From: Flavobacteriales bacterium
GTDB lineage: Bacteria > Bacteroidota > Bacteroidia > Flavobacteriales_F > PHOS-HE28
Assembly: GCA_016715995.1 (NCBI GenBank)
Contig: JADJXF010000018.1
Span: 89,819-153,818, forward strand
Length of the DNA stretch: 64,000 nt
Direction of reading: 5' to 3'
How positions within the stretch are numbered: the first letter of the stretch is position 1; each line of letters begins with the position of its first letter. Below, piece by piece: positions 3,537 to 59,526 of this stretch. The notes beneath the pieces are model-generated. The model had not been told where the DNA came from. It saw only the letters and a list, made by a program, of their open reading frames with translations, and made no database searches. The position numbers and the translations under genes are program-made.

Positions 3537-4580
3537 TCAGGTCCGTCCGATGCGTGCCATCCGCTGCCGAAGCCAATGATCGGCCAGCACCAGGCACGCC
3601 ATGGCTTCCACGATGGGCACGGCGCGTGGCACCACGCAGGGGTCGTGCCGGCCCTTCGCCTCCAGCATCACCTTCTCGCCGGTCTTGTTCAGCGTCTCTT
3701 GGGCCAGCGCGATGGTGGCGGGCGGCTTGAAGGCCACGTCGAAGAAGAGATCCGATCCATCGCTGATCCCGCCCGCCAGCCCGCCTTGCGAGAGCCGGTT
3801 GTGCGCTGAGCCGCGCAAGGCCGCCGCTGCGAAGCCGCTGCCGATCTGGAAGCCCTTCGATGCGTTGATGGAAAGCATGGCCTTCGCGAGGTCGGCGTCC
3901 AACTTATCGAAGACGGGCTCACCCAATCCTTCTGGAAGGCCGCGCACCACGCACGAGACCACCCCGCCGACGCTGTCGCCTTCTGCACGGGCCTGCTCGA
4001 TGATCGCTGCCATTCGTGCGCCGGTGTTCTCATCCGGGCATCGCACCGCGCTGCTCCATACGGGGGCTAGATCCGCCGGGATTCCACCTAGCGCCACTTC
4101 GCCCACGCGACTCACGTAGGCGTTCACCTGAACGCCATCACGCGTTAAGAGCTGACGCGCTATGGCGCCGCCCACCACGCAGGCCGCCGTGGTGCGCGCG
4201 CTGCTGCGTCCGCCGCCACGGTGGTCGCGCAGCCCATACTTCACTTCCCACGTCCGGTCGGCGTGTCCGGGGCGGTAAACGTCCTTCAGCGCGTCATAGT
4301 CGCTGCTTCGCGCATCGTTGTTGCGGATCAGGAAGCCCATGGGCGTGCCAAGTGCCCTACCCTCGAAGATGCCACTGAGCCACTCCACGCCATCGGCTTC
4401 GTTGCGCGCGGTGCCCAAGGGCGTGCTACCCGGCCGACGGCGATCCAACTCCATCTGCACGGCGTGCTGGTCAATCGGCAGGCCCGCAGGGCAACCATCC
4501 ACCACGCCACCAATGGCCGCGCCGTGGCTTTCGCCGAAGCTGGTGAGCCGGAAGAGCTGGCCGATGGTGTTGCCGGGCAT
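3537..4580 (-). CDS. aroC: chorismate synthase
   Basis: [34 protein letters not shown]...DRRRPG is the diagnostic AroC N-terminus. Full-length ~347 aa. Confidence 0.9.
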
Positions 4581-9181: not shown

Positions 9182-9931
9182 ATGCCCTTGGAGCCCGGCC
9201 GACCACCCGGCCTGGAGTTCTCCATGGGCGTTGCGCTCTTCGCCATCACGATGCTGGCGTTCTTCGGTGTGCAGAGCGTCGCGTTGGTGAAAGGCGTGAT
9301 CGACCGTACCCCGGAGCTGCAGGGCGAATCCTTCTCCTTCAGCTGGTTCCAGGATCCCCTCTTCCAGCAGCGCCTTCAGGACCTGGCCTTCAATGGCGAT
9401 CTGGTGGGCAAGGAGTCCGCGTGGAGCGGCGGCATCTGCTCGGTGCTCATCCTGTTCGCCTGCTGGCGGTGGAAGCGCGACCGCGTCGGGCTGCTGCTCG
9501 GTCTGAAGCTGCCCAAACCCAAGGAATTCCTCAAATGGTTCGGCCTCTTCGCCGGCATCATGCTGGGCATCGAGCTGCTCGCGCAATTCGTACCGGCCTT
9601 CGATACAGACTTCATGGAGAAGGTCGTGGGCAGCACCACCAACTGGCCTTTGCTCGTCATCGGCGTGGTGCTGCTCGGCCCGCTCTTCGAGGAACTGCTG
9701 CTGCGCGGCCTCCTCTTCGGCACGCTACGGCACATCGCCGACGAGCACATGAGCGTGGCGATCACGGCCGGCGTATTCGCGCTCATGCACCTGCAGTACA
9801 GCCTGCCCATCATGCTGCTCATCCTGCCCATGGGCATCGCGCTCGGCTATGCGCGGTCCCGTAGCGGTTCCATCTGGGTGCCCGTGCTGCTGCATATGCT
9901 GAACAACGGGATGAGCGTGCTGTGGCCGTAA
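9182..9931 (+). CDS. CPBP-family intramembrane metalloprotease (CAAX protease-like)
   Basis: Multi-TM protein with EELLLRG, FALMH and HMLNN motifs characteristic of Abi/CPBP proteases. Confidence 0.8.
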   Translation: MPLEPGRPPGLEFSMGVALFAITMLAFFGVQSVALVKGVIDRTPELQGESFSFSWFQDPLFQQRLQDLAFNGDLVGKESAWSGGICSVLILFACWRWKRDRVGLLLGLKLPKPKEFLKWFGLFAGIMLGIELLAQFVPAFDTDFMEKVVGSTTNWPLLVIGVVLLGPLFEELLLRGLLFGTLRHIADEHMSVAITAGVFALMHLQYSLPIMLLILPMGIALGYARSRSGSIWVPVLLHMLNNGMSVLWP

Positions 9932-10040
9932 GCGGTGGCGACGCGCCGGGTGGTTAAGCGACGAGTTTCGCGCATTGCTGGTCGCATGGCCTCCCGGGGA
10001 AGCGCTCGCTAGATTTGGCGCCCTCAATCCGAAGCCAGCC

Positions 10041-11701
10041 ATGCAACGCCGCCTGATCGAATGCGTGCCCAATATCAGCGAGGGCCGCGACCGTGCCAAG
10101 ATCGACGCCATCGCCGCCGTGGTGGAGACCGTGGAAGGCGTTCGCCTGCTCGACGTGGACCCCGGCAAGGCGACGAATCGTACGGTGATCACCTTCGTGG
10201 GAGAGCCTGAGCCGGTGTGCGAGGCCGCCTTCCGCTTGATCCGTAAGGCGCAGGAGCTGATCGACATGCACGGCCATAAGGGCGAGCACCCGCGCTTCGG
10301 AGCCACGGATGTGTGTCCGCTGGTGCCCATCAGCGGCGTGAGCATGGAGGAGTGCGCCGCATATGCGAGGAAGCTCGGTCAGCGCGTGGGCAAGGAACTC
10401 GCCATACCGGTATACCTGTATGAAGCAGCGGCGAGCGAGGAGAAGCGCCGCAACCTGGCCAACAACCGGAGCGGTGAGTATGAAGGCCTGCCGAAGAAGC
10501 TGAGGGATGCTGCGTGGAAGCCCGACTTCGGCCCGGCGGAATTCAACGACAGCGTGGCGCGGAGCGGTGCCCTCGCCATCGGTGCGCGCAATTTCCTGGT
10601 AGCGTACAACGTGAACCTGAACACCACGAGCACGCGCCGCGCCAACGCCATCGCATTCGACATACGCGAGGCGGGCCGAAAGGTGAAGCAATCCGATGGC
10701 AGCGAGCTTCAAGTGCCAGGCAAACTGAAAAGCGTGAAGGGGATCGGCTGGTACATCGAGGAATACGGCATCGCTCAACTCTCCCTCAACCTTACAGACA
10801 TCACGATTACACCGGTACACATCGCCTTTGATGAAGCATGCACGAGCGCGAGCGAGCGTGGAATCCGCGTCACCGGCAGCGAACTGGTGGGCCTGATCCC
10901 GAAGCAGGCGTTGCTCGATGCAGCCGACTTCTACCAGCACGTCAAGAGCGCAGCCTCGGCATCCCCGAGCGCGAGAAGATCAAGATCGCCGTGAAGTCGC
11001 TCGGCTTGGATGACCTCGGCCCCTTCGACCCGCAGAAGAAAGTGATCGAATACATGCTGGAGGAGCCGGGCCAGGAGCGTCTGGTTCGAATGGACCTTAA
11101 GCGCTTCAGCGAGGAGACAGCCAGCGAGAGCCCGGCCCCGGGCGGTGGATCCGTGGCCGCATACGTGGGTGCGCTCGGAGTGGCGCTGGGCACGATGGTC
11201 GCCAACCTCAGCGCCCACAAGCGCGGGTGGGATGATCGCTGGAAGGAGTTCAGCGACTGGGCCGTGAAAGGCGAGAACCTCCGCCATGAGTTGCTCCTCT
11301 TGGTGGATGAGGATACGCGCGCCTTCGACCGTATCATGGCTGCCATGGGCCTGCCCAAGGGAAGCGACGAGGAGAAGAAAGCACGCAAGACGGCCATCAC
11401 GGAGGCCACGAAAGGCGCCATCAATACGCCGTTGCGCACCATGCAGGTGTGCGTGGAGAGCATGGGGCTGATGAAGGCGATGGCCGAACACGGCCTGCCC
11501 GCGAGCGTGAGCGACGCAGGCGTGGGCGCGTTGTGCGCACGCACCGGCGCGCTGGGGGCCTACCTCAACGTGCGCATCAACTGTGCAGGGCTCGACGATG
11601 CCGCCTTCAAGGACGACGTGCTGAAGAAAGCCGAAGCATTGAAGTCCGTGGCAGAGCAGCTGGAAGCCGAAGTGATGGCGCTGACCCTCGCCAAGGTGTA
11701 G
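10041..11701 (+). CDS. ftcD: bifunctional glutamate formimidoyltransferase / formimidoyltetrahydrofolate cyclodeaminase (FtcD-like), one frameshift near 10950
   Basis: N-domain MQRRLIECVPNISEGRD... (formiminotransferase) and C-domain ...APGGGSVAAYVGALGVALGTMVANLS... (cyclodeaminase) lie in two overlapping frames (ORFs 9975-10994 and 10838-11701). Adjacent to hutI. Confidence 0.8.
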
Positions 11702-30654: not shown

Positions 30655-30880
30655 ATGAAAGAGAAGCGCGATCGGTTCGCCAAGGTGGCCGCCTCGAGAG
30701 TCCAGAAGGCGCTGGATGCGCTAGGAGAGCCTCTCGAAGTGCAGCAACAAGACCAACTACGAGTACACCGAGGCCGATATCCGGAAGATGTCGCGTGCGC
30801 TAAACGACAAGCTCAAGACCACCTTGGGTATGTTCCGCTCCGGGGCTGATTCCAAGGGTGCCAACACCTTCAAATTCTGA
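30655..30880 (+). CDS. small (~75 aa) hypothetical protein, first gene of the dcm operon (frameshift near 30725)
   Basis: MKEKRDRFAKVAASRVQKALDAL... continues after a 1-nt shift as ...SKCSNKTNYEYTEADIRKMSRALNDKLKTTLGMFRSGADSKGANTFKF. Confidence 0.45.
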
Positions 30881-30974: not shown

Positions 30975-32575
30975 ATGGCAAAGCCGCGTCAATACACGGC
31001 CCTCGACCTCTTTTCAGGTTGTGGGGGCTTCAGTCTCGGACTCCAACGCGCAGGCATCAAGGTGCTTGGTGCTGTCGATTTCAACAAAGAGGCCATCGAA
31101 ACCTACCGGGCGAACTTCCCGGAAGTGCCTTTCGTGAAGGAAGCGGACATGAAAACCATGAAACCCGCAGACCTCGCCAAAGCTATCCACGCCAATCACG
31201 TCGATGTGATTGTTGGTGGGCCACCTTGCCAAGGGTTCAGCATGGCGCGACAACGCGATGGAGCGAACCACGGGCAGCGACGTTTCGTGAAGGATGAGCG
31301 CCGCGAACTATACCAGGAATTCCTACGGTTCGTGGACCACTTCCAGCCGAAGGTGTTCGTAATCGAGAATGTCCTTGGCATCAAGAGCGCGGAAGGCGGC
31401 AAGTATTTCACCGCCGTCCAGCACGAAGCGCGGAATTTGGGCAAGGAAGATGGCAGACCGGGCTACCGTGTGCATGCGCAAGTGGAGCAGGCATGGGAAC
31501 TCGGTGTGCCTCAGAAGCGCAGACGCCAACTCATCATCGGTGTTCGGGCTGACCTACCAGGATACTTCCCAACGAAGCTCTCAACGCCGAAGCGGTCCAT
31601 GAAGGATATGACCCTTGGTGCTGCGATCATGGATCGTCCTGTGTTGGAAGGTGGGCAAGTCGAAGAGGAACGCGAGTACGATCGCGCCTCCGGGAAAAGG
31701 CCATCAAGCAATTCGGCCGCCACGCTGAGAAATACCTCTACAATGTACTTGAGGTTAAGAGGGCCAAGAAGCTTACTGGACATCGTGCACGGAAGCATAG
31801 CGACCGTGACTTGCGGGACTTTGCCAAGTTGAAGGAGGGACAGAGTTCCGCCAACGCCATGCGAGCTGGCATCAAGTTCGAATTCCCGTACAGCACAGAG
31901 AGCTTCAAGGACCGCTACACCCGGCAGGATCGGAAGGCACTCTGTAGCACTATCGTCGCACACTTGAGCAAGGATGGACTGATGTTCATCCACCCAACGC
32001 AGAACCGCTCGTTGACCCCGCGTGAAGCCGCACGGGTGCAGAGCTTCCCGGATTGGTTCCAGTTCCCGTTCTCACGTACACATCAGTTCAGGATGATCGG
32101 CAACGCCGTACCGCCGCTGGTTTCTGAAGCCGTAGGGAATGAGGTGGTGAACTTCATTGCTGGTCAAACCTTGATTAAACGAACTCGCATGAACCGCACG
32201 ATACCACAAGACCAAGAGGAAGCCGTGAACTGGCTGCTACCTGTCCTTGACCTATCTGCCAAGGAGTTGAGCCAAATGGAGAAGGCGGAATTCCTGCGCG
32301 CATGGCGTGCGGTTGCTTTCCTCTACCCTGGCTTGCACCCCGATGGTGCGTTGGATCATGGAAAGCGCATCGAGCAACGGAGGGAAGGACCGAGTTGGGT
32401 GATGATGATCGAGCCCAGACTTGTCACACCGTACTTCAGCCAAAGCGGATGGCCTGTTGTGTTGAAATCACTCGCTAATGAGGCGTGGCGGAGGGACGAT
32501 GCTGGTCTGCTTGCTGACGACGAGTTGTACTCGATAGATGCGCAGCATGCCGGTATGACACACGCAATGAACTAG
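30975..32575 (+). CDS. dcm: DNA (cytosine-5)-methyltransferase (frameshift in A-run at 31694-31698)
   Basis: Motif I DLFSGCGGFSLG, motif IV GGPPCQGFS, motif VI ENV, and C-terminal QNRSLTPREAARVQSFPDWFQF / GNAVPPLV. The two halves are ORFs 30975-31832 and 31811-32575. gggaaaagg lacks one A relative to the in-frame reading. Confidence 0.85.
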
Positions 32576-32579
32576 GCAC

Positions 32580-35247
32580 ATGCAGGCTCCTCATTGGCAA
32601 TTCGCATCCACTGGGGGCGGCACCGAGGATGGGGTTTCCAATCCCGACCTTGAGTATTTCGAAGGGATTAGAACTACTATCTCGCTCGCGAGATCCTTCA
32701 GAACGCCCTCGATGCGCGGCTTGATGCAACGAAGCCGGTCCGTGTGGACTTCACCTTGCTCGAAATGCCGAAGTCACAGTTCCCTGGCTTCGATGAGTTC
32801 GTTGATGTCTGGAAAGCTGCCAAAGCCCTTTGGCCACAAAGCGAGGAGAAGTGTCACCAATTTCTTGATGCTGGTCTGCGTTGCTTGGAGCAGCCCAAGC
32901 TTCGCGTGCTCAAGATTTCGGACCACAACACAGTTGGCCTGAATGGCGACGATGGCGATCGGAGTGGTGCTTGGTTCTCCTTGGTAAAGTCAGTTGGGTC
33001 CACTACCAAAACTGGAGGACAGGGTGGATCATTCGGTATCGGGAAAGGAGCCCCATTCGCGGCTTCGATGCTTCGCACTTGCTTCTACTCCACGGTCAAC
33101 GAGCGTGGTCAAAACGTCTTCCAAGGCGTGGCCAAGCTGGTCAGCCACAAGAAGGACGACGACGTGAGGCGCGGTGAGGGGTCCTATGGTTTGGCGATGC
33201 AGTCCTCCATACGAAACAGGGAGCAAATGGAGGAAGCCATGGTGCGTAAGCAGCGTGGCTTGGACATATACGTGATGGGATACAAGGTTCAGGACGACTG
33301 GCAGGAAAAGCTCATTCGGTCTGTCCTGCGGAACTTCTGGCTGGCAATTCGTGACCAGGAACTCGTGGTCGTCATTGATGGTCAGGAAATTTCTGAAACA
33401 ACCGTTGACGAACTTCTGGCCAAGTACTTTCTGAACGAACCTTTCAAAGACGCTACTCGTCCCGAAGGGAATCCGCTGGAGTACTTCAAGGCATACAAGA
33501 ACGGTACGCCGTTCCACAAGGAGCTGCCGATACTTGGTCCTGTCAGGTTCTATTTCAATCTGACCGAGGAACCCTTGAATTGGGTCGCGATGATCCGGAA
33601 GCACAAGATGGTCATCTACACTCGCACATTCCACTTCCTTCACCATACGCCGGGGTGTTCATTTGTGACAATGCCGCTGGCAATGCAGAACTGAGACGGA
33701 TGGAAACACCGGCCCATGATAACTGGGACCCGGCAAGGCATAAGGAAAAGGGGCAGGCGATCGAGGAAGAGATCAGAGGCTTCATACGAGAGTGCTTACG
33801 CGCCATGACCAAGTCTCAAGAGGGAGGAAAGGTTGAGATCCCAGGACTCCATCGATACCTCCCGTTTGAGCATGAGGATGACGACACACAAACAGGCGGA
33901 ACAGCCATGGAGTATTCCGGAAGACCAGTTGCCGGACCAGAGGAAACCGCCCGTGAATTGGGTGCGGCAGAAAGCATCAATGAGACCGTCACGATAAGCC
34001 CTTATCGAGTTACGGTCTTAAATGAACGCAAAGCTGGGTTTGAAGGTGAGGGCGCAGAAACAGGGGGAAAGAAGACCAAGAAGAAGCGGAAGCCGCATCG
34101 CGGTGGCGAAGGCGAAAACGATGCGCTACTGAAAGAGCACCTGCACACCCGTGCATTCTGTATCGGCCAGTCATCCGATGTTCTCATTTACCAGCTCGTA
34201 GTGCGGAGCGGCATTGACGGACTTTGCAGCCTGAAGGTGAATGCTGTTGGTGAAGAGGGTGGCGAGAAGGTGGTCTTGAGGACCGCAGTAGATCGCAGCG
34301 GAAATCAATACAAGGTCAATGGACACCGCATCTTGAACATTCCGATCAGCAGTTCATCGGACCTCCAACTCAGCTTGGAGGTGGAAGGTCTGGACGGCTT
34401 GCACTCAGCATTGACGGCTATGCGCTACAACAATAGAGACTATCCCCATCCGGTTCTTGGTGTTGGCGATGCCGTTGCTGGTCATTTCAGCGTGCGGTTA
34501 GCCGTCCGCGCAGGTACCAAGGAGATTCGCTTAGAGCCGGTCTACGACCTTGGCAATCGCACACCAACGCATCCTGGCATTGAAGGCGGGCAGGCTCAGT
34601 TCGCAACTCACATCTATTGCAAGGGCACCATGTTCCGTGAAGTGCGGAAGTCGACCAAGGCCGTAGCGGAAACTATTGTACTTCCAGCCAGTGCGCTTCG
34701 CGACAAGGTGGAAGTGGACTTCTTCGTATGTGCGAACGCTCCGATCGCAGCCTACACGAATTCCGACGCGCATTCCGACTTCGTGGGGCACTCGTTCCCA
34801 GTTGAGCGAGGCGTGATTCTGGCATACGGCGGGCAAGGCGTCTTCTATGCGAACAAGACTCCTGAGGAACTGAAGGCGATCTCGTCCTTCATGAACATCG
34901 ATCGCGACCCACGACCTCACGGGCCTATGTACAACGCCTACGATGGGGACAAGATCACCGTGATGCTGTCCTCGAACGACTACCAGCGCTATCAGATCGT
35001 CAAGAGGGATCCGTACATCGTTGAGATCCTGCACAGCGCGATCGTTCTGCCCGCTTTGATGCAAGCCATTGCCGTAGTCCAAGAGGAGCCGTCAGAGTTT
35101 GCTGAGCACAAGTGGTTCGACATTCTCAAAGGACTAGTCGAGGAAACCAAAGAGGAAGATCCGATGAAGATCGCGCAGAAAATCTTGGAGAACCCGCTCA
35201 ACCGTTCCTTCAATGCTGTGACCAGCATGATGGAAACAGCAGATTGA
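32580..35247 (+). CDS. large (~890 aa) protein with N-terminal GHKL/Bergerat-fold ATPase domain (sacsin/MutL-like) and uncharacterised C-terminal region (two homopolymer frameshifts)
   Basis: N-box LAREILQNALDA, G1-like ISDHNTVGLNGDD, G2 GGQGGSFGIGKGAPFAAS. Pieces are ORFs 32580-32942, 32744-33694 and 33580-35247. Shifts at agaac (32669-32673, one A short) and ttcc (about 33645, one C short). Starts 5 nt after the dcm stop. Confidence 0.7.
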
Positions 35248-35251
35248 TGGC

Positions 35252-35995
35252 ATGAGCAGCACGGAGCAACCCATCGCTCTCCTAGAGCAGAAGATCCTAT
35301 CGACACGCACAGTCGACAGGATGTATCGGCAACTCAAGAACCTTCAGGATCACTCACAATACCTAGCTGGGTCATACGTCGGCGAGCTAGAGTTTCCGAA
35401 AGGGGGTTCCGGTATTGCGGCCGTCGAGGACCTCAAACTTGTTCCTCCAGACTCCAAAGACCTGCAAGACTTAGCCAATACCAAGCTCATCTATCACGCC
35501 TTTCAGAAGCTCACTCCGGCACAGGCGTCTGACAAGAGGCTGTGGACCTACCTGACGCATGTGACTTTCTGGGACTACATGAGAAAGCGATGGCCAGTAG
35601 ATGAGGCGGACAAGCCCATCAACAGGATAAGTGATCGCTACTTTCTCACTACGACAAGCTTGGAGTCGCTGACTAGGAATGGCATCTCGCGCTTGTGGTG
35701 GTATGGCTATTTAACGCACGACGCGAGTCGCAGCAATCCATGGGAGTTGACGGAGACACTTCTGTCGCGCGCGGATCTTGTGGTTGGCATTACAGAGCGC
35801 GCTGTCGGCAGCAATCAAACCTTGCGTACTGCTGTACTGGAGTTTCTTGCTGACAACCCGGAGATCAGTCTAAGTGAAAAGCTCACCCGTGAACTTCTCA
35901 AGAAGCTGAATCTTGTTGGGGGTACTCGCAATCTGCCCTTCCTGGATGTCGCAGAGTTGAAGGTGCTCTTAGCGAGTATTACCCCAACCTCTTAG
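35252..35995 (+). CDS. hypothetical 247-aa protein, translationally coupled to the GHKL gene
   Basis: Starts 5 nt after the 35247 stop. Trp/Tyr-rich motifs (KRLWTYLTHVTFWDYMRKRW, RLWWYGYLTHD). No family recognised. Confidence 0.6.
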   Translation: MSSTEQPIALLEQKILSTRTVDRMYRQLKNLQDHSQYLAGSYVGELEFPKGGSGIAAVEDLKLVPPDSKDLQDLANTKLIYHAFQKLTPAQASDKRLWTYLTHVTFWDYMRKRWPVDEADKPINRISDRYFLTTTSLESLTRNGISRLWWYGYLTHDASRSNPWELTETLLSRADLVVGITERAVGSNQTLRTAVLEFLADNPEISLSEKLTRELLKKLNLVGGTRNLPFLDVAELKVLLASITPTS

Positions 35996-36234
35996 CCATC
36001 ACTACTTCTTGGTTCTTCAGTAGGCTCTGCATTTCGCGTTAGGGACAGCAGCGGAAAAGCCCGGAGCGTTCTTAGGCGAGGACTTGTAGCGAATGGCCCG
36101 ACGGCGCGTCTTCGAACCGGAATAGCCAAACCACCGGCATTCCCCGAAGACACCGCCCCACCACCTAGAACATTGCTGCCGTAGGGTGCTCCAGAAAGCA
36201 ATACTTCTAATAGCCTTTCCCAGTGCCTCTTGCC

Positions 36235-37818: not shown

Positions 37819-38011
37819 CTATTCGAAAGAAAGAGTACTACAGCTAGTTCATTGGGTGTGCCGGCAATTCGCAGCGTGTCATTCACTGTTCACATATTCC
37901 TCCGATACTGCCCCCCTACCTCGTCCTTCGGCTGCCGCTCAGGACTCGCCGCCGTCAGCTGCCCCAGTGAGCAATACTATCGCCTCCATCAGCACCATTT
38001 TATCACGTTGC

Positions 38012-38646: not shown

Positions 38647-38667
38647 TGGCCCAAAGGTAGCGACCGG

Positions 38668-39143
38668 TATGGCCTTACATGTTCCTTCTATACTGCCCAC
38701 CTACTTCAAACATCGCAGCAGTAAGCTGTCCAAGGCTACAGTACTTGGTCGCCTCCATCAGCACTGCGAACATGTTCTCGTTCTTGATCGCCGCTTCTTG
38801 CAATTTGCGCAACGCCGCCTTGGCTTCTTCGGCGTAGGCCTGCTGCACGTTCTCCACCGTCCTGATCTGCGCCTCCTTCTCTTCCTCCGTAGCGCGAATG
38901 ACCTCCTTCGGCAGGATCGTCGGTGAGCCTTTGCTGCTGAGGAAGGTGTTCACGCCGATGATCGGGTATTCACCGGTGTGCTTCAGCGTTTCGTAGTAAA
39001 GGCTTTCCTCCTGGATGCGGCTGCGCTGGTACATGGTCTCCATGGCGCCGAGCACACCGCCGCGTTCGGTGATGCGGTCGAACTCGGTGAGCACGGCCTC
39101 TTCCACCAGGTCGGTGAGCTCTTCGATGATGAAGGAGCCTTCG
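38668..39143. repeat. direct repeat copy 1 (icmF 3' end, ~470 bp, diverged)
   Basis: DNA alignment to 43666-44143 with scattered substitutions. Homology begins at ggctccttcatcatcgaagagctcacc. Confidence 0.7.
38675..39143 (-). pseudogene. diverged partial copy of the 3' end (last ~155 codons) of icmF
   Basis: Encodes ...[28 protein letters not shown]...[14 protein letters not shown], about 90% identical to the C-terminus of the intact gene at 43666-44143. Same stop context (ttacat(g/a)ttcc). No upstream gene body. Confidence 0.7.
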
Positions 39144-39930: not shown

Positions 39931-41376
39931 TTACAGATGACACATCCGGATCTTCAAGGCATTCACCTCCTCTTGAGATAGCCCGCAGTTCAACAGGTAC
40001 TGTTCCACGCCGCCCTCTTGCTCAATGATGTCCAACACTATTTGCAAGTTGTAGCCGTACGTATCCGACTCGCTAGCTAAGTAATCCGTCTGCACAGTTT
40101 CGTGGTCGGCTCCGGCGACTAGATGAAGCAATGTGACGATGATGCCCGTACGGTCCTTTCCTGCATGGCAGTGTATCAAAGCCCCCTTGCCGTTTGGCAC
40201 TTCAGCAAGTGCGCGAACTACAACAGAAATACTCTCACGACAAGCAAGCGCAAAGAAGCGATAGGCCACCTGCTGGTTACCCCCCCGCTGGTACTCCGCT
40301 GTTTTGAACCAATCCGGTTGACTCCATGGATCCAATGGAGCATGCACGTATCGGCCGATGGGCCATTTCTCCCGTGGATGGGGATGCTCTTCCAACTCCC
40401 GAGGCGCTCGAAGGTCAACGACCGTATGCACATCATGATCAGCCACCAATGTCGCAAGCATGTCCTCATTCATCAGCGCAGGTGCAGAAGAGCGCAAGAG
40501 ATTTGACCAACGGACCTTGGGGTTGTAGGTGCCGACGGCCCGCAGGTTCCAATATCGATCTCGCTCATAGATCTGTTCACAGGTCGCGCGAACATCGGCT
40601 AGCTTCTCGAAAGCGAGATCATCCAGTGTCTCGTACAACAGATCCAGCAATTCACGCTTCTTCCCATTCATTTCCGGCAGAAACATGGAGCCGCTCAACC
40701 GGTACAACCTTTCGCGGAATGTCCCATCAGTTATGTTCACCAAGAGATTTCTTGGAAGGAACTGGAAACGGTCCTGGGCGATTTTCATATTGAGCAACTG
40801 GACCACACAGTGCAGAGCGATCTGATAGAAGTAGAGGGCTCGATGGCCATCGCTTCTTCGATGGAACGTCGATGCATTGTCGAACTCGTAGATGAACTTG
40901 TCCACTAGGTCCTGGACCGTGCTCGGTCGGTATCCGATACCCAAGACGCCTTCAAGTCTACCAAGCAGGTGGCCCGACCTATCGATCAGAATGGCCTGCG
41001 GGAGAAGGTCACGAGGAATAGCAGACCCTGTCAAATCGCGCGAGAAGGACTCCATGCTCCGATGTATGGAGAACTCAGTCTTCAACCGCATGCCTTGAAA
41101 GAACGCCACCACCTTGTTCCGCATTTCAACCCGCATTACACGATCGGGTTTAGGCGATGCCTTCACCAAGGCGTTCGTCAGCGCTTCGCTACTGAACCTT
41201 TCATCGACGATCAGCGCAACATCGATATCAGAGTTCGGGGTTGCTTCCTGCCGAGCAACGGATCCATAGAGCACGGCAGCATCGATCCCAACAACTCCTT
41301 CGAGTATCGGCCGGAAACCATCAATGATCTGGTGATGCATCATGTTGTTGGTTTCCTCATGTTGCAGGTCATACAC
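39931..41376 (-). CDS. nucleotidyltransferase (Pol-beta/MNT-like) fused to C-terminal Cys-based tyrosine phosphatase domain
   Basis: N-terminus LYGSVARQEATPNSDIDVALIV (GS...DxD NTase motif). C-terminus IHCHAGKDRTGI (CX5R P-loop, Tyr_phosphatase_3-like). Confidence 0.7.
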   Translation of the reverse strand: MYDLQHEETNNMMHHQIIDGFRPILEGVVGIDAAVLYGSVARQEATPNSDIDVALIVDERFSSEALTNALVKASPKPDRVMRVEMRNKVVAFFQGMRLKTEFSIHRSMESFSRDLTGSAIPRDLLPQAILIDRSGHLLGRLEGVLGIGYRPSTVQDLVDKFIYEFDNASTFHRRSDGHRALYFYQIALHCVVQLLNMKIAQDRFQFLPRNLLVNITDGTFRERLYRLSGSMFLPEMNGKKRELLDLLYETLDDLAFEKLADVRATCEQIYERDRYWNLRAVGTYNPKVRWSNLLRSSAPALMNEDMLATLVADHDVHTVVDLRAPRELEEHPHPREKWPIGRYVHAPLDPWSQPDWFKTAEYQRGGNQQVAYRFFALACRESISVVVRALAEVPNGKGALIHCHAGKDRTGIIVTLLHLVAGADHETVQTDYLASESDTYGYNLQIVLDIIEQEGGVEQYLLNCGLSQEEVNALKIRMCHL

Positions 41377-41490
41377 AATGGCCTTGTCTTGTAATCCATC
41401 ACCAAGCTGCGGTAATTGGCTCCGTGCAGCGTCTCTTCAAGGCCGATCTCGTTCACATTCCCAAAATCACCTAGCGACTGCCTTTGTTCA

Positions 41491-42366
41491 TCAGGCGCAC
41501 AACACGGCGAGATCTTTACCCGTGGCCGATACCCACAACTCCTTGCCGAGGAAAGGGCAATCATAGTCCTCTGGCACTGCGTGCCCAACTACTGGCTTCA
41601 ATGGCTCGATGTTCTCCAGAAGAACAGGGCGGCCATCATGCCTCCTGAATTCATCTGCTGCGTCCCGTGCAGCTTCAACAATGCCGTTCCAATGCTCAAT
41701 GGCCTCTGGCGACGACTTGAAACTGAGTTCCTCGATCTCTTTGAAGTGTGCCCACAGGTGGTGACCCTTCACGCGGTCAACACCCAGGTCTGCTGCGAGG
41801 CGAATGATACCGGGTAGTTCGTGCATGTTGTTCTGCATGAACGTGAGTTGAAGGGTAACGCGGCAGTAATAGCCTGATCTCTTGAAGTGGTCATCCCTGA
41901 CCTTGACAAAGCGCCTGACGTTCTCCAACGCTTGCACGAACGTCAAACCCTTCATAATAGACTCCGCCGTTTCCTTGGTTGCACCATTCCATGAGATCTT
42001 CACGTCCGAGGTAACAGGAACGATGAGCGCCGCCCACTCCTCCACTGACTTCTTTGGGAAGGTGCCGTTGGTCGTTAGGTTGATCTTCATCCCCAACTCC
42101 GCTGCGAGCGCGAAGACTTCATCCATCTGACGGTAGAGCAGCGGTTCACCCATTGTCGAAGGGATGATCTCGCGGACACCCATGGCCTTCGCTTGCTCCA
42201 TGATGTCCCGAACCATGGTGAAGGGCATCCGCCTGCGTTTGACACCCGTGCGTTCGTAGAGTCGTTGGATGAAATCGCTGTGCTCACTGTGCTCTTCGCA
42301 CATGGTGCAACTCAGGTTGCAATCCTCTGGATTCGTGTCCAGTGTTATGCGCCACAACTTGCTCAT
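41491..42366 (-). CDS. radical SAM enzyme (small, no SPASM domain)
   Basis: CNLSCTMCEE (CxxxCxxC), SAM motifs STMGEPLL and NLTTNG. ATG overlaps the GT4 stop (ATGA). Confidence 0.75.
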   Translation of the reverse strand: MSKLWRITLDTNPEDCNLSCTMCEEHSEHSDFIQRLYERTGVKRRRMPFTMVRDIMEQAKAMGVREIIPSTMGEPLLYRQMDEVFALAAELGMKINLTTNGTFPKKSVEEWAALIVPVTSDVKISWNGATKETAESIMKGLTFVQALENVRRFVKVRDDHFKRSGYYCRVTLQLTFMQNNMHELPGIIRLAADLGVDRVKGHHLWAHFKEIEELSFKSSPEAIEHWNGIVEAARDAADEFRRHDGRPVLLENIEPLKPVVGHAVPEDYDCPFLGKELWVSATGKDLAVLCA

Positions 42367-43643
42367 GACCGGGCGATCAGTTGCGCATACACGTTCTCCA
42401 GGATCGCACAATGATCCAAGATGGAGGGAACTACGCCAGCTGTCGAGAACAGATAGCCTCGTCGTCCGAGCCGTTCCATTTCCTTGGGATGCATACAGGC
42501 CCAACGCATCTGCTCCCGAAGGTCTTCGATGGACCTATGCCTGAAGAGCAGCCCGTTGACCTGGTGTTGCACATATTCCGCCATGCCACCGGCATCAGCC
42601 GTGATCACAGGAATGCCGCATGCTTGTGCTTCGTGGATGACCAAGGGCGAGTTCTCCATCCAGATGGACGGTACCACGATGCAATCGACCCGGTTGAACA
42701 CTTCGTTGGCGAGGTTCTGGTTCACATATGCACCCATGAAGTGGATGCCCTTTCGAGAAGCACCCATGGCCTGAAGAGCGGCAGTGCTCTGCTGGTCCTT
42801 CGCGCCCCAGACGTAAAGTTCGGCAGCATCACCAAGTCCGTCAAACGCTTCGATGAGCTTGTTCACTCCTTTCGCCGGGATGTGCGTGCCGATATATCCA
42901 AATCGGAACTTGGGATAGGCATCGCGCTTCGTGGTCGCAACCAAGTAATCCGTGGGGAACCCGTAGTCGAGGTACATGACCTTGCTTGCTTCAACGCCGA
43001 ACTCATCAATGAAGCGTGTGCGCAAATACTTGGATGGCGCGATGAAGAGATCCACCGCAGACGCCAATCTGTGCATCTCATCCATTCTTGTCGCGACCCA
43101 TTTTGACCAGTAACCCTCTTCATCGTTTATCCTGCCATCGACACCAGACAATGCCGAAGAGTAGCAGGTCGTTGCGCACTTCCGATCCTCCTGCCCGTCG
43201 CACAGTTCATGCAATCGGCCTTGTCCGAAGTTCCGTTGAAGGAATTGGCCCCGCGGGCACATCAACCAGAAGTCGTGCAGCGTGAACACGATCGGAATTC
43301 CCGCCCTCTCCAGCACATCCACGATGCCTGTGGACAAGTGATTGAGGTGGCCGATATGTGCCACATCCGGCTTAAAGGATCGAACCAACTCTGCGAACCG
43401 AGCATCGAGTTCGGCATGGCGATAACCATCTTTCGCTCTGGGCATGTTCACCAGATGAACCGCAAGTCCCGGATGCACTTCAGTAATCCGGATGGTCATG
43501 TCTGGCGCGAAGGGGTTCTCCTCGCGTGAGAAGACAACCACCTCATGGCGATTGGAGAGTTCTTCGCAAATGGACTGGCTGTAAACCTCGGATCCTGCGC
43601 TGTACAGCGGCGGATAACCGTGTATGACCTTCAAGATCCGCAT
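42363..43643 (-). CDS. GT4-family glycosyltransferase
   Basis: GT-B fold, C-terminal EAQACGIPVITADAGGMAEYV (EX7E-like) motif. Confidence 0.8.
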   Translation of the reverse strand: MRILKVIHGYPPLYSAGSEVYSQSICEELSNRHEVVVFSREENPFAPDMTIRITEVHPGLAVHLVNMPRAKDGYRHAELDARFAELVRSFKPDVAHIGHLNHLSTGIVDVLERAGIPIVFTLHDFWLMCPRGQFLQRNFGQGRLHELCDGQEDRKCATTCYSSALSGVDGRINDEEGYWSKWVATRMDEMHRLASAVDLFIAPSKYLRTRFIDEFGVEASKVMYLDYGFPTDYLVATTKRDAYPKFRFGYIGTHIPAKGVNKLIEAFDGLGDAAELYVWGAKDQQSTAALQAMGASRKGIHFMGAYVNQNLANEVFNRVDCIVVPSIWMENSPLVIHEAQACGIPVITADAGGMAEYVQHQVNGLLFRHRSIEDLREQMRWACMHPKEMERLGRRGYLFSTAGVVPSILDHCAILENVYAQLIARS

Positions 43644-43665
43644 GTTCGCGCCGACCTCGAAGAGC

Positions 43666-44143
43666 TTACATATTCCTTCTGTACTGCCCACCTACCTCAA
43701 ACATCGCCGCCGTCAGCTGCCCTAGGCTGCAGTACTTCGTCGCCTCCATCAGCACGGCGAACATGTTCTCGTTCTTGATCGCCGCCTGTTGCAAATTCTT
43801 GATGGCGGTCGCCGCTTCATCGCTGTAGGCCTCACGCAGGTTCTCCACCGTCGCGATCTGGGCTTCCTTCTCCTCTTCCGTGGCACGGATCACCTCCTTG
43901 GGCAGGACAGTAGGTGAGCCCTTGCTGCTGAGGAAGGTGTTCACCCCGATGATCGGGTATTCGCCGGTATGCTTCAGCGTTTCATAGTAGAGGCTTTCCT
44001 CCTGGATGCGGCTGCGCTGGTACATGGTCTCCATGGCGCCGAGCACGCCGCCGCGTTCGGTGATGCGGTCGAACTCGGTGAGCACGGCCTCTTCCACCAG
44101 GTCGGTGAGCTCCTCGATGATGAAGGAGCCTTGCAGCGGGTTC
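43666..44143. repeat. direct repeat copy 2 (in-gene 3' end of icmF)
   Basis: See copy 1. Confidence 0.7.
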
Positions 44144-47100
44144 TCGTTCTTGGCCAAGCCGAGCTCCTTGTTGATGATGAGCTGGATGGCCATGGCGCGG
44201 CGCACGCTTTCCTCGGTGGGCGTGGTGATAGCCTCGTCGTAGGCGTTCGTGTGGAGGCTGTTCGTATTGTCGTAGATGGCGTAGAGCGCCTGCAACGTGG
44301 TGCGGATGTCGTTGAAGTCGATCTCCTGCGCGTGGAGGCTGCGGCCGCTGGTCTGGATGTGGTACTTGAGCATCTGGCTGCGCTCGTCGGCGCCGTAGCG
44401 GTGCTTGAGCGCCTTGGCCCAGAGGCGGCGCGCCACGCGGCCCATCACGGCGTATTCGGGGTCCATGCCGTTGCTGAAGAAGAAGCTCAGGTTGGGCGCG
44501 AAGGCGTTGATGTCCATGCCCCGGCTGGAGGTAGTACTCCACGTAGGTGAAGCCGTTGGCCAGCGTGAACGCGAGCTGCGAAATGGGGTTGGCGCCGGCC
44601 TCCGCGATGTGGTAGCCGCTGATGCTGACGCTGTAGAAGTTGCGGACCTTCTGCTCGATGAAGTACTGCTGCACATCCCCCATCAAACGCAGCGCGAACT
44701 CAGTGCTGAAGATGCAGGTGTTCTGTGCCTGGTCTTCCTTCAGGATGTCGGCCTGGACGGTGCCGCGGACCTGGGCGAGGGTGTCGGCTTTGATCTTGGC
44801 GTAGACGTCGGGCGGGAGGACCTGATCGCCGGTGATGCCGAGCAGAAGCAAGCCTAGACCGTCATTCCCTTTCGGAACCTCACCATGATACTTCGGGCGC
44901 TGGCTGCTGGCTGTTGGCTGCTGGCCTTTGGCTGCTGGCTGCTGGCCGCTGGCTACTGGCTGCTGGCTCGCTTGCGGATTGGAGCCAGTAGCCAGTGGCC
45001 TGTGGCCAGCAGCTTCCCAACGCTCCTTGACCTTCTTTTCAACCTCTGCTTCCAATCCGTTCTCCCGGATGTATTTCTCGCAGTTCTGATCGATCGCCGC
45101 GTTCATGAAGAAGCCCAACAACATGGGCGCCGGACCGTTGATGGTCATGCTGACGCTTGTGGTGGGCGAGGTGAGGTCGAAGCCGCTGTAGAGTTTCTTG
45201 GCATCGTCGAGGCAGCAGATGCTTACGCCGCTGTTGCCCACCTTGCCGTAGATGTCCGGACGACGACCGGGATCGTGGCCATAGAGCGTGACGCTGTCGA
45301 ACGCAGTGCTGAGGCGCTTGGCGGGCAGGCCTTGGCTCACGTAGTGGAAGCGCTTGTTGGTGCGCTCCGGTCCACCCTCGCCGGCGAACATGCGCGCGGG
45401 ATCCTCGCCGGTGCGTTTGAAGGGATAGATGCCTGCGGTGTAAGGGAAGAAGCCGGGCGTGTTCTCCTGCATGGCCCAGCGCACCTTGTCGCCCCAACTG
45501 CGGAACTTCGGCAGCGCCACCTTCGGGATCTTCAGGTGACTGAGGCTCTCGGTGTGGTTGGGCACCTTGATCTCCTTGCCGCGCACGAGGTAGGTGTAGA
45601 ACTCGCCGCCGTACTTCTCCTCTTCGGCCTTCCAGCCGCTGATCATGGACCAGAGGTGCGGATCCAGGTCCTTGCGTAGCTCGTTGAACTTGGTGATCAG
45701 TGTTTGGACTTCAGGTGTTGAGGTGAATGGTGAATGGGAGCTGGTGACTGGCGAACCCGCATCCACGGCATTTCTCCATTCGCCATTCACCAACGACCAT
45801 TCACCCGCAAGCATATCGGGTCCTCCGAAGGTGATGACAGCAGAGTGCAGCCCATACAGTTGATCAGCAATGTTCGCCTGGGCATCCACCCGGGAATCGT
45901 AGCGGCGATTGTTCTCGCTGATCTCGCTCAAGTATCTGCTCTTCGCAGGAGGGATGATCCACACCTTCTCGCTCATCTCGTCGTGCGCGTGGAAAGTGCT
46001 GTGGAAGTCGACGCCCGTCTTGGACTTGATGGTCTCCATCAACCGCACATACAGGTTGTTGGTGCCGGGATCGTTGAACTGGCTGGCGATGGTGCCAACA
46101 ACAGGCAGCTTGTCATCGTCCGCATCCCAGAGCTGGTGATTGCGCTTGTACTGCTTCTTCACATCGCGCACCGCGTCTTGCGCGCCGCGCTTGTCGAACT
46201 TGTTGATCGCCACCACATCGGCGAAGTCAAGCATGTCGATCTTCTCCAATTGCGTGGCCGCGCCGAACTCCGGCGTCATGATGTAGAGCGAAACGTCGCT
46301 GTGATCGAGGATCTCCGTATCGCTCTGGCCGATGCCGCTCGTCTCGAGGATGATCAGGTCGAAGCCCGCGGCCTTCAGAATCTCCACGGCTTCCTTCACG
46401 TGCTTGCTCAGCGCGAGGTTGCTCTGGCGCGTGGCGAGTGAACGCATGTATACGCGTTCGCCGCGGATGCTGTTCATGCGGATGCGGTCGCCCAGCAGCG
46501 CGCCGCCGGTCTTGCGCTTGCTCGGGTCCACGCTGATGACGCCGACCGTTAAACCTTGTCCTTCCGGGCCTGACCCGGAATGATCGAGGATGAAACGGCG
46601 GATCAACTCGTCCACCATGCTGCTCTTGCCAGCACCGCCAGTGCCTGTGATGCCCAGCACCGGCGCCTTGCTCGCTTCGGCCTTCTTATGGATCTCGTCG
46701 GCGATGGTGGCGAAGACCTCCGGATGGTTCTCCGCCGTGCTGATCAGCTTGGCGATGGCCGGCCAGTTCTGCGGGCTCAGCTTCTTCGCCTCGCCGTTCA
46801 GCTTGTCGCTCAGGTCGAAGTCGGCCTTCTCGAGCATGTCGTTGATCATGCCCTGTAGGCCCATCGCACGACCATCATCCGGGTGGTACAAGCGCGTGAT
46901 CCCGTACGCGTGCAGCTCCTTGATCTCCTCGGGAAGGATCGTCCCTCCTCCCCCGCCGAAGATCTTGATGTGCCCTGCGCCCTTTTCCTTCAGCAGGTCG
47001 TGCATGTACTTGAAGTACTCGTTGTGCCCGCCTTGGTAGCTCGTCATGGCGATGGCGTGCGCATCCTCCTGGATCGCGGTGTTCACCACGTCCTCCACAC

Positions 47101-47257
47101 TGCGGTCGTGCCCTAAGTGGATCACCTCGGCGCCGGTGCTCTGGATTATGCGCCGCATGATGTTGATCGCGGCATCGTGGCCGTCGAAGAGGGAAGCAGC
47201 GGTGACGACGCGGATCTTGTTCTTGGGGACGTAGGGCGGGGCGGAGACGAAGGACAT
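43666..47257 (-). CDS. icmF: fused isobutyryl-CoA mutase (B12-binding domain, MeaB-like GTPase, mutase catalytic domain), one frameshift near 44525
   Basis: B12 domain (...[18 protein letters not shown]...), P-loop [17 protein letters not shown], mutase core [35 protein letters not shown]. The true C-terminus is in ORF 43666-44676. The 1175-aa ORF's last ~180 aa are an out-of-frame artefact. Extra C in ctcc at about 44527. Confidence 0.85.
44885..44960. repeat. short tandem repeat (gctgctggc-type units) encoding a Gln/Pro/Ala-rich inter-domain linker of IcmF
   Basis: ggctgctggctgttggctgctggcctttggctgctggctgctggccgctggctactggctgctggc encodes ...[26 protein letters not shown].... Confidence 0.4.
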
Positions 47258-47327
47258 AGCGCGAAAGTACCGGCGAGAAGGTGAACCCGTGATGCCCTGA
47301 GCATCGTTACGTTCGCCCTTCACGGCA

Positions 47328-48578
47328 TTGGAACCTAGCATGCGCAGCATCCTCCTTCCATTCGCCTTCCTTCCCTTCAGCGTCATGGCCTGCACAGCCT
47401 TCAAGGTGACGCAGGACGGCCGCACCATCGTGGGCTTGAACGAGGATGCCTGGAGCATCAATGCCCAGGTCCGCTTCGAGCAAGGGCGCAACGGCGGATA
47501 TGGCGCCATCTACTTCGCCCACTTCAACGGCCACCCGATGCGCGTGATGAACGACCAGATGGGCATGAACGAGGCGGGGTTGGTGTTCGATGGTCTGGTG
47601 GTGGGCCCAGGGACGGTGAAGCGGCGCACAGGAATGCCCGCTATGGAGACCTCGGATGCGATCAACCATGTGATGCGCACGTGCGCTACGGTGCACGAGG
47701 TCGAGGTTTTCCTGCGCACGGTGAACACCGGGCCAATGGCTGGCATGCTCTTCTTCTGCGATGCGGCAGGCGGCTACTTGGTGGTGGAGCCCGACACGAT
47801 GCTCCTCGGCCACGACCCATGGTACGCGGTGAGCAACTGGCGGATGAGCAATTGCAGCGACCCGGCCACGATCCCGATACCACGCCTGCAGAACGGCCGC
47901 CAATTGTTGACGAGCGGAAGCGGCGCATCGCCCGAAGAAGCGGAGGAAGTCCTCTCCACCATGGCTGCATGCCGCGCGAAGTTGGGCGAAGGCACCTTGT
48001 TCAGCGTGCTCTTCGATCCCACTGAAGGACAGGCGCACCTCTACTTCTACCACGACTTCAGCGAGCGCCTCACCTTCAATCTGGAGGAAGAACTCACCAA
48101 GGGCGACCACCGCGTGGACATGGCCTCGCTATTCGGCCCAAGACCCGAATACGAAAAGCTCAGGGCCTACGTCACGCCCTTCCACCAGCGCTGGTTGTTC
48201 TGGGCGATGCTGGGCTGGCTCGGACTTGCGCTCCTGATTGGCGCGGCATCCTTCGTGCATCTCTGCACCCGCATCATCCTTCGTTTGCGCCGCCGAGCGG
48301 CCGGTTCGCTCATGGTTCCGCTGCTCGGCGCATCCACCACTGCGCTCGTGGCTTTGCTGCTCGGCGTGCTGCTCATGCAAGAAGGGCCGTACTACTTCGG
48401 CTTGGGCGATGTGCATCCCGCCCTGGTCTGGGCGCCCGTTCTCATCGCGTTGATCGGTATAGCCTGGCTGGGCATCGCGAAAAGGAGTGACGCTTCACGG
48501 TTGACGCTCTTGATTGGATCAGCGTTTCTCCTGCCATTGCTATCAGCCCTCACCTATTGGGGTATGCTTCTGCCGTAG
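47328..48578 (+). CDS. choloylglycine-hydrolase-family (C59, Ntn) linear amide C-N hydrolase with C-terminal membrane domain
   Basis: Signal peptide ends ...SVMA then nucleophile Cys (CTAFKV). C-terminal ~130 aa contain 3-4 TM helices. Confidence 0.65.
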
Positions 48579-57069: not shown

Positions 57070-57302
57070 CGTGCGACCGGCATAGCGCCGACAAAGCCAG
57101 CGGTGCCCGCAATGGGATTGTGCAATGGCCCTTGTAGCGCAATGCCCATCCGCAGCTTGGCCACTGGGCGCGGATTCCCTTCGGCGCGGCACCGCTGACA
57201 TGCCCGTCTCATGAATAGTCCCGACCTTCAGGCATCCAAATCCGGAAGGGGCGTCTGCCGAGTGGCAGGGTGCCCGCCCTGTCACCACCGGACCAGGACC
57301 AT

Positions 57303-59522: not shown

Positions 59523-59526
59523 TTCC

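Follow-up and report, generated by a model that had tools for sequence, protein, structure and literature searches.

Positions 32580–35247 of the plus strand in a 64,000-nucleotide stretch of Flavobacteriales bacterium DNA (GenBank assembly GCA_016715995.1, contig JADJXF010000018.1, positions 89,819–153,818; the whole stretch is hereafter referred to as the window) raise the question of whether they encode one protein or two. The initial annotation, made from the sequence alone, described a single protein of 889 residues, in which an ATPase domain of the GHKL type was fused to about 500 residues of unrecognisable sequence, the latter being a candidate for the effector or the sensor part of a defence-type system. 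The segment consists of two neighbouring genes, here called A and B, and their apparent fusion is an artefact of frame breaks. Together with a small gene, a C5 cytosine DNA methyltransferase (C5-methylase) gene and a third gene, C, they form a conserved cassette, which is a copy of PDC-M33, a phage-defence candidate of the PADLOC catalogue, here damaged or mis-assembled. Our overall reading joins this frame-broken pair of PDC-M33 genes with a restriction-modification-like defence function of the module and a lean towards assembly error as the origin of the breaks; we hold the three jointly with somewhat better than even confidence.

Two neighbouring genes in three reading frames

The span of 2668 nucleotides is not divisible by three and runs through three frames and an in-frame TAG codon, showing that the single 889-codon open reading frame (ORF) originally described does not exist. 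The ORF listing gives three pieces in three frames (32580–32942, 32744–33694 and 33580–35247), and the frame that encodes the N-box of the GHKL domain lacks any upstream start codon. Conceptual read-through of all the frame breaks yields exactly 889 residues; the first translation was thus evidently carried across them. The peptide strings quoted from it are all encoded on the plus strand (GEGAETGGKKTKKKRKPHRGGEGEND at 34045–34122, HLHTRAFCIGQ... at 34138–34170 and FFVCANAP...AYGGQG at 34720–34839), and so are three GHKL-type motifs (REILQNALDA at 32687–32716, ISDHNTVGLNG at 32915–32947 and GGQGGSFGIGKGAPFA at 33014–33061).

To map the lesions, we used as the reference the closest intact relative, protein P0002 at locus L001 of a JGI metagenome (73% amino acid identity), and compared the L001 proteins with the window by tblastn and by gapped DNA alignment. 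The L001 genes are separate and unbroken, encoding a 74-residue protein, a C5-methylase, A (622 residues), B (274 residues), C (a DUF6339 protein) and an HNH protein; B overlaps the end of A by 17 nucleotides in a different frame, and loci L002–L004 are similar. With the L001 A protein, tblastn returned four frame segments in the window. Gene A of the window (32580–34436, plus strand) has suffered 1-nucleotide deletions near 32663 (in a G-run), 33624 and 34390, as well as a TAC to TAG change at 32669–32671. The PDC-M33A profile accordingly matched it in two different frames, at positions 33–344 (E = 1e-95) and 346–612 (E = 1.5e-23). With three frameshifts and the TAG codon, A is not an intact, expressible PDC-M33 gene as sequenced. 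When the breaks are bridged, it encodes a protein of 619 residues that has lost none of the 46 invariant or 44 near-invariant family residues and ends in the same way as its relatives, with GRLALSIDGYALQQ followed by the stop codon; these last 13 codons and the stop are found at 34395–34436, in the other frame.

Gene B (34420–35247, plus strand) is a separate, intact gene of 275 codons. Its ATG at 34420 lies 17 nucleotides before the true stop of A, in the other frame, and its product matches positions 1–283 of the 289-position PDC-M33B profile (E = 3e-53). The FFVCANAP...AYGGQG string corresponds to B residues 101–140. The deletion near 34390 shifts the frame of A into that of B, and the result is the 555-codon ORF 33580–35247, which physically joins the C-terminal part of A to B in one frame and thus appears as an A–B fusion.

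Homologs gave the same picture. The read-through sequence, searched against 5.8 billion proteins, had 552 matches, of which the intact ones were about 620 residues long and reached no further than the first 68% of the query. The B portion alone retrieved 60 homologs, all of them standalone proteins of about 274 residues. We then fetched 84 loci: none contained an ORF matching both A and B, and the stop of A and the start of B overlapped by 11–17 nucleotides in 65 of 74. Over more than half of the tail, then, the term 'fused' does not apply: residues ~615–889 of the read-through are encoded by gene B, which stands alone in 60 of 60 homologs and in 77 of 77 loci carrying it.

A genuine 889-residue protein, with a GHKL ATPase fused to a novel effector or sensor region of about 500 residues, would be consistent with the length of the read-through, with the 555-codon ORF that unites the C-terminal part of A with B, and with the fact that NCBI annotates a 515-residue protein from this ORF (P0001, locus tag IPM46_11535, the 100%-identical match, from a 'Flavobacteriales bacterium' metagenome-assembled genome, MAG). 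Such a protein would require three frame changes and passage through a TAG codon within a span that is not a multiple of three, the true C-terminus of A is kept in another frame, and there was not one fusion among some 550 A homologs, 60 B homologs and 84 loci. The frame analysis already refutes this possibility, to which we give virtually no credence. Programmed frameshifting was also rejected, each homolog being encoded by one unbroken ORF. The A–B fusion is not real, whether the lesions are assembly errors or true decay, and the case is a cautionary one: reading through the frame breaks of a MAG produced an apparent novel domain fusion, the last ~275 residues of which belong to a separate gene.

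Domain architecture of A and B

To describe the architecture of A, we used an AlphaFold2 model of P0002, its 73%-identical intact homolog, made with 49 homologs (mean predicted local distance difference test score, pLDDT, 79). The N-terminal GHKL (Bergerat-fold) ATPase domain (32580–33355, plus strand; model residues ~1–260) was predicted with pLDDT above 90. Its three motifs are invariant in the 49 homologs: E38, N42 and D45 of the N-box ExxxNxxD (motif I, REILQNALDA); D115, G120 and G123 of motif II, which has the variant spacing ISDxNTxGLxG; and G150, S151, G153, G155, K156 and G157 of motif III (GGSFGIGKGA). Sequence profiles did not recover this assignment, as none of the 49 family members matched a Pfam GHKL/HATPase model at E ≤ 1 and there was no NCBIfam match. 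Pfam and NCBIfam searches with the A and B pieces and with the whole family alignments gave no real matches, and the family profiles of A, B and C had none among all PDB sequences even at E ≤ 10. The description of the tail as unrecognisable by sequence was therefore fair.

The model was more informative. Foldseek against PDB found a sole match at E ≤ 1e-3, the topoisomerase VI B subunit (Topo VI-B) of M. mazei (2q2e_B; E = 1.1e-8, Foldseek probability 1.00), as a single whole-chain alignment of 747 columns. In both, the GHKL domain is followed by a further domain that ends in a long helix, the transducer in the case of Topo VI-B. In A, this is an alpha/beta domain (33362–33819, plus strand; model residues 263–415, pLDDT ~90) with its terminal helix at 393–418. 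It contains the invariant cluster R341, C364, G369, L373, E377, P379, H381 and W384 (GVFICDNAAGNAELRRMETPAHDNWDP in the window), including C364, E377, H381 and W384 (GVFICD...MEPPxHDKWDP), the only strongly conserved Cys/Glu/His cluster in the tail, which thus lies before the linker. We interpret the predicted domain as transducer-like, of the Topo VI-B type. The initial statement that a transducer could not be assigned does not survive this comparison, given the confident second domain in the model of the intact homolog and a GHKL-plus-transducer protein as its only significant PDB match. The resemblance is one of layout: the two share 9% sequence identity with a global TM-score of only 0.25, the cassette encodes no Top6A/Spo11 partner (winged-helix plus Toprim), and A has an extra disordered linker and beta-sandwich.

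The predicted disordered linker of about 100 residues (33820–34128, plus strand; residues 416–519 of the homolog model, pLDDT below 50) includes the acidic, Gly- and Lys-rich stretch at 34045–34122 noted at the outset, and has few conserved positions (P423, Y428, L429, P430 and E457). It leads into a C-terminal all-beta domain of about 100 residues (34129–34436, plus strand), modelled as nine strands at residues 524–619 with pLDDT ~85. This domain begins at HLHTRAFCIGQ... and ends in the 13 codons and stop codon that the deletion near 34390 displaces. Foldseek returned generic matches only, to CBM2 and mu-homology beta-sandwiches at E ~1e-2.

B was modelled with AlphaFold2 from the intact copy of the window itself (pLDDT 89). 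The model shows a beta-sandwich at residues 20–185 and a helical bundle at 185–275, with no significant Foldseek match in PDB or the viral library and only generic FnIII/Ig-like similarities at E ≥ 1e-3. The invariant residues of the family are P9, C67, T70, R73, V97, F142, A144, V209, L210, P211, W232, Q253 and P259. This set in the family alignment contains neither acidic residues nor histidines, and the His, Asp and Cys positions in FFVCANAP...SDAHSDF that had looked conserved vary across the family. Identity of B with RNaseT2L_C was considered and rejected: 10 of 43 members matched that model weakly within the beta-sandwich, at 14.5 bits against a cutoff of 27. B is apparently non-catalytic, as judged from the model and the alignment.

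By these models, the tail is thus made up of the accessory domain that follows the GHKL core, the linker and the small C-terminal beta-sandwich of A, and in addition a separate, apparently non-catalytic protein. Foldseek of the A and B models gave no nuclease-like match. Of the two roles first offered for the tail, the generic predicted folds of the linker, the beta-sandwich and B argue against the effector, whereas a sensor or adaptor role may still apply.

A methylase-linked cassette and the candidate role of DUF6339

PDC-M33 is one of 145 candidate systems that PADLOC proposed by 'guilt by embedding' (Payne et al. 2024, bioRxiv 10.1101/2024.01.29.577857). The window and the PADLOC system represent the same family, as all three profiles match strongly, contiguously and in the same gene order and orientation on the plus strand. 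Gene C (35252–35995, plus strand), the third member, is intact, and its product of 247 residues is matched by Pfam DUF6339 (E = 6e-58) and by the PDC-M33C profile (E = 6e-56). Membership in a defence-type system, which had been proposed for the segment, holds, as does an N-terminal GHKL ATPase followed by sequence that profiles do not recognise. The window copy differs in carrying the frame breaks. Moreover, PADLOC models A, B and C only, while most relatives contain more: among the 84 loci, B was present in 77 and C in 74, the C5-methylase (Dcm) in 73, the small gene in 57 and Vsr, the commonest additional neighbour, in 44. No other nuclease recurred among the neighbour clusters of these loci. 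In most of them, B and C overlap or are separated by a gap within about 15 nucleotides, and this arrangement, taken together with the overlap of A and B, indicates that A, B and C are translationally coupled.

The two remaining genes of the cassette are broken in the window. The small gene (30655–30880, plus strand; about 74 residues; L001 counterpart at 4074–4298) is interrupted by a 1-nucleotide insertion near 30725, seen as an extra G in the DNA alignment; tblastn placed residues 1–23 of the L001 protein at 30655–30723 and residues 24–74 at 30725–30877 in the next frame. Its homologs, of about 75 residues, are encoded upstream of A or of the methylase and conserve F8, A12, R15, N31, Y35, Y37 and F60; they had no family match in profile searches and fall outside the PADLOC definition of PDC-M33. 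The Dcm-type methylase gene (30975–32575, plus strand) is split near 31684, where the DNA alignment shows a 1-nucleotide deletion, into ORFs 30975–31832 and 31811–32575. Positions 2–189 of the Pfam DNA_methylase model match the first ORF and positions 244–322 the second, and residues 5–255 and 257–552 of the L001 Dcm align in frames 3 and 2, respectively. The C5-methylases of Bacteroidota cassettes are about 510–560 residues long (L001 4337–5995), as against about 320–350 in Patescibacteria. The Bacteroidota versions have a C-terminal extension of about 140 residues (32150–32575 in the window), the Pfam domain ending at about residue 112 of the second ORF.

By its pattern of conserved residues, C is the only component of the cassette with catalytic-looking conservation. 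The invariant residues include Y37, D94, R96, W98, H103, Y109, W114, R147, W149, W150, E182 and R183, and the triad of D94, R96 and H103 is kept in 71 of 74 loci. An exhaustive search with the DUF6339 profile gave 2,056 representatives of clusters at 50% identity; the best 150 of these were almost all standalone proteins of about 250 residues. One protein among the matches listed, P0306 (L085 287–1579), has DUF6339 fused to an NgoFVII-type B3-like DNA-binding domain (PF20731; E = 5.7e-16), and the gene directly upstream of it, on a 1.66-kb metagenome contig, encodes a B homolog (E = 1.6e-27). The fusion, found within a genuine cassette, links DUF6339 with the way in which restriction enzymes recognise DNA, and on sequence grounds C is the strongest candidate for a subunit that engages DNA or acts as the effector.

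C might alternatively be a divergent HEPN RNase restrained by the GHKL ATPase, in which case A, B and C would form an abortive-infection module analogous to PrrC and the paraMORC–HEPN proteins. The spacing R96-x6-H103, invariant in the alignments and kept in 73 of 74 loci, conforms to the HEPN signature Rx4–6H, and fusions of HEPN (Ymh) domains with GHKL ATPases of the paraMORC group have been described within restriction-modification neighbourhoods (PMC3710099). When 32 C members were searched with the Pfam models of the HEPN clan, however, none matched at E ≤ 1, and no match among PDB sequences came to their aid. The further invariant motifs of C (RLWW and ER..G) are atypical of minimal HEPN domains, and P0306, the only fusion that bears on the question, joins DUF6339 to a B3-like domain with which restriction enzymes bind DNA. 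With a fitting motif and no profile support, the HEPN assignment is retained as a minor rival, which we consider quite unlikely.

Restriction-modification operons in which a GHKL ATPase accompanies Dcm, Vsr and HNH genes have been described (Iyer, Abhiman & Aravind 2008, PMC2292703). The MORC and paraMORC proteins of such operons, in which a GHKL ATPase is followed by a domain of the S5/transducer type, share with A the GHKL ATPase and, going by the model, a second domain after it, location beside cytosine methylases, Vsr and sometimes HNH genes, and a patchy, laterally mobile distribution. The corresponding linkage is found here, with Dcm in 73 and Vsr in 44 of the 84 loci and HNH genes flanking the trio in L001, L002 and the Deinococcus locus L067. 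A differs from them in that Pfam GHKL/MORC profiles miss it even at E ≤ 1, and in that it is not fused to a nuclease, TIR or HEPN domain and is partnered by B and DUF6339 instead. Linkage to a superfamily II (SF-II) helicase is found in about 70% of MORC operons, whereas none was recognised by eye, with no profile search made, in the 14 largest recurrent neighbour clusters of the 84 loci. The CglI and NgoAVII systems offer a second parallel. They consist of a C5-methylase, an R protein that combines a nuclease with a B3-like domain, and an ATPase subunit; the ATPase is not known to be of the GHKL type and the nuclease is of the PLD family. The cassette shares with them the C5-methylase, what would be a multi-subunit, ATPase-containing restriction side and, in P0306, the NgoFVII-type B3-like domain fused to DUF6339, but its ATPase is of the GHKL type and no PLD motif was seen in C.

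On these grounds we propose that the cassette would act in the manner of a restriction-modification system. The Dcm-type methylase would mark host DNA as self, and Vsr, which often lies alongside, would repair the T/G mismatches that arise from methylation. A would dimerise on ATP, as do the GHKL-plus-transducer proteins Topo VI-B, MutL and MORC, to form an ATP-gated clamp or switch on DNA. The tethering and positioning of C would fall to B and to two parts of A, the flexible linker and the C-terminal beta-sandwich. The DUF6339 protein would then engage unmethylated target DNA and probably cleave it. The successive overlaps of the A, B and C genes suggest co-production, which would suit a complex. 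A bolder form of this proposal, tentative and on balance doubtful, is that A, B and C constitute a new methylation-gated restriction machine, in which a clamp of the Topo VI-B/MutL-like GHKL type, rather than a helicase or translocase, licenses a DUF6339 effector of a new fold, either a DNase or an RNase of a cryptic HEPN-like kind, with the small protein and B as new adaptor or regulatory parts.

Several observations weigh against a restriction-like function. A nuclease fold or motif cannot be recognised in any component, and the term 'restriction' is drawn only from the methylase linkage and the context. C has no match among PDB sequences and no Pfam relatives beyond DUF6339. The methylase is not universal across the loci. 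On pS127, a conjugative dairy plasmid of L. lactis (L086; NZ_CP061323.1 106588–110213), A, B and C lie between an AlwI-family restriction enzyme and AbiGI/AbiGII, a context that in itself favours defence; this variant has no methylase, and its C has lost D94, R96 and H103, which are replaced by K, E and N. Two Deinococcus loci (L067 6994–11498 and L069) have an HNH gene directly upstream of A, B and C and likewise no methylase; in L067 the sequence covered extends about 8 kb to the upstream side and 6 kb to the downstream side, and in L069 less far downstream. Finally, PDC-M33 is a candidate only, and literature searches for PDC-M33 or DUF6339 found no papers in the library searched. The RLWW motif is also altered in the DUF6339 protein of pS127. 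L067 encodes a RepA replication initiator and is probably a plasmid. A rule by which the D-R-H triad is retained only where there is a methylase was not established, as only pS127 has lost the triad and the Deinococcus loci keep it without a methylase.

The frequency of Vsr raises another interpretation, in which A, B and C would not be an immune effector at all but a MutL-like accessory to Dcm and Vsr, aiding the very-short-patch (VSP) repair of T/G mismatches left by the deamination of 5-methylcytosine. MutL of E. coli stimulates Vsr. A resembles MutL in its layout of an N-terminal GHKL domain and second domain, a flexible linker of about 100 residues and a small C-terminal globular domain, as well as in its link to Dcm and Vsr, the commonest accessory gene (44 of 84 loci), and the analogy to mismatch and VSP repair has been discussed (PMC2292703). 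The likeness ends there, since A has no detected sequence similarity to MutL and its C-terminal domain, an all-beta sandwich, differs from the dimerisation/endonuclease fold of MutL; by eye, the A consensus contains no endonuclease motif of the DQHA(X)2E(X)4E type. Forty of the 84 loci are without Vsr and some are without the methylase. The trio is found in defence islands, as with AbiG and AlwI on pS127, and PADLOC identified it through its embedding in defence systems; its associates further include HNH nucleases and a DNA-binding domain of restriction enzymes. A role in VSP repair is, in our estimate, even less probable than the HEPN alternative, and the restriction-like function remains the one that we prefer.

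Origin of the lesions and genomic surroundings

The lesions are unevenly distributed. The cassette contains five indels and one nonsense mutation in about 4.7 kb, genes B and C being intact, whereas at least two indels were detected in about 55 kb of flanking DNA, where most genes are long and unbroken (up to ~835 codons). By rough, post-hoc arithmetic, the probability that at least five of seven indels placed uniformly over 64 kb would fall within one 4.7-kb stretch is ~4e-5. No common sequence motif, such as might accompany methylation-related base-calling errors, was evident on inspection of the lesion sites.

We lean slightly towards the view that the frame breaks are consensus errors left uncorrected in a MAG built from long reads, and that the genes are not true pseudogenes. 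The locus-tag series would probably place the contig in a collection of activated-sludge MAGs of that kind. Five of the six lesions are 1-nucleotide indels, and such breaks also occur in housekeeping genes elsewhere on the contig. The formiminotransferase-cyclodeaminase (FTCD) gene (9915–11698, plus strand), outside the island described below, has a frame break near 10940–10990, with FTCD_N and positions 1–111 of FTCD in one frame and positions 108–145 of FTCD and FTCD_C in the next, which indicates an indel error or a pseudogene. A gene for an IcmF-type fused mutase (B12-binding, MeaB and MM_CoA_mutase domains; 43672–47509, minus strand) is broken near 44520, within the conserved ...YVEYYL... 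motif. Three features count against the lean: lesions are about 20–30 times as dense in the cassette as in the flanks, one of them, the TAG codon, arose by substitution, and the remaining genes of this low-GC island appear complete.

True decay, with the methylase, the small gene and A as real pseudogenes, B and C still unhit and the system dead in this organism, is accordingly only a little short of an even prospect. It would account for the crowding of five indels and a nonsense substitution into ~4.7 kb when ~55 kb of flanking DNA yielded at least two detected indels. It would also account for damage to the methylase gene together with that of the ATPase, a pattern to be expected in a restriction-modification-like module that is no longer under selection. 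The placement of the cassette in an apparently accreted island at the 3′ end of icmF is in keeping with it, and the intact-looking neighbouring island genes argue against a generally poor consensus. Decay is in turn difficult to reconcile with frame breaks inside highly conserved motifs of the housekeeping genes for FTCD and IcmF on the same contig, which are unlikely to be real, and with lesions that are nearly all 1-nucleotide indels. Furthermore, none of the 90 conserved residues of A is substituted, when decay would, by a rough estimate, be expected to yield several-fold more substitutions than indels. Assembly error therefore keeps its slight advantage.

The 3′ end of the icmF-type gene (43652–43951) is repeated at 38661–38960 with 82% identity over 300 nucleotides. 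Shorter copies are found at 36173–36205, 37946–37995 and near 38713, and an exact 16-mer is present three times. The repeats look as if islands had inserted one after another at the 3′ end of icmF, and the low-GC block at 30.6–43.7 kb, which includes the cassette, would be an accreted island. No integrase was seen at this icmF-associated island, and there are no tRNA genes in the window. Next to the cassette, the island carries three genes on the minus strand (39934–43691), encoding a fusion of a nucleotidyltransferase and a Tyr-phosphatase (39934–41376), a radical SAM protein (41494–42504) and a GT4 glycosyltransferase with a weak 'GT4-conflict' match (42369–43691); these genes may represent another conflict or modification module. 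Further away, two tandem paralogs (57219–61698, plus strand) encode large surface proteins with DUF11, DUF7619 and Por_Secre_tail domains, the last a sorting signal of the type IX secretion system, which fits a Bacteroidota host.

Relatives of the cassette were found in 283 of about 185,600 GTDB species representatives, in phyla that include Bacteroidota, Patescibacteria, Proteobacteria, Planctomycetota, Deinococcus, Bacillota and others. In 12 of the 84 loci (e.g. L043 5312–7198), the cassette adjoins a gene for a protein of about 500 residues with an N-terminal motif that resembles, by eye, that of serine recombinases (YLRKSTDDE). This recurrent neighbour would suggest that the module travels on integrative elements.

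These results concern a cassette that is widespread, with more than 2,000 DUF6339 clusters, and that occurs on plasmids and in defence islands, yet is catalogued as a candidate only. To what the catalogue records they add the domain layout of A and B, the recognition of the small gene, the methylase and Vsr as parts of the module, and the evidence that A, B and C are translationally coupled. If active, the cassette would be a restriction-like system that has neither a recognisable nuclease nor a motor of the usual kinds. Given its fusion to a restriction-enzyme DNA-binding domain, DUF6339, rather than the tail of the GHKL protein, is the component to examine first.

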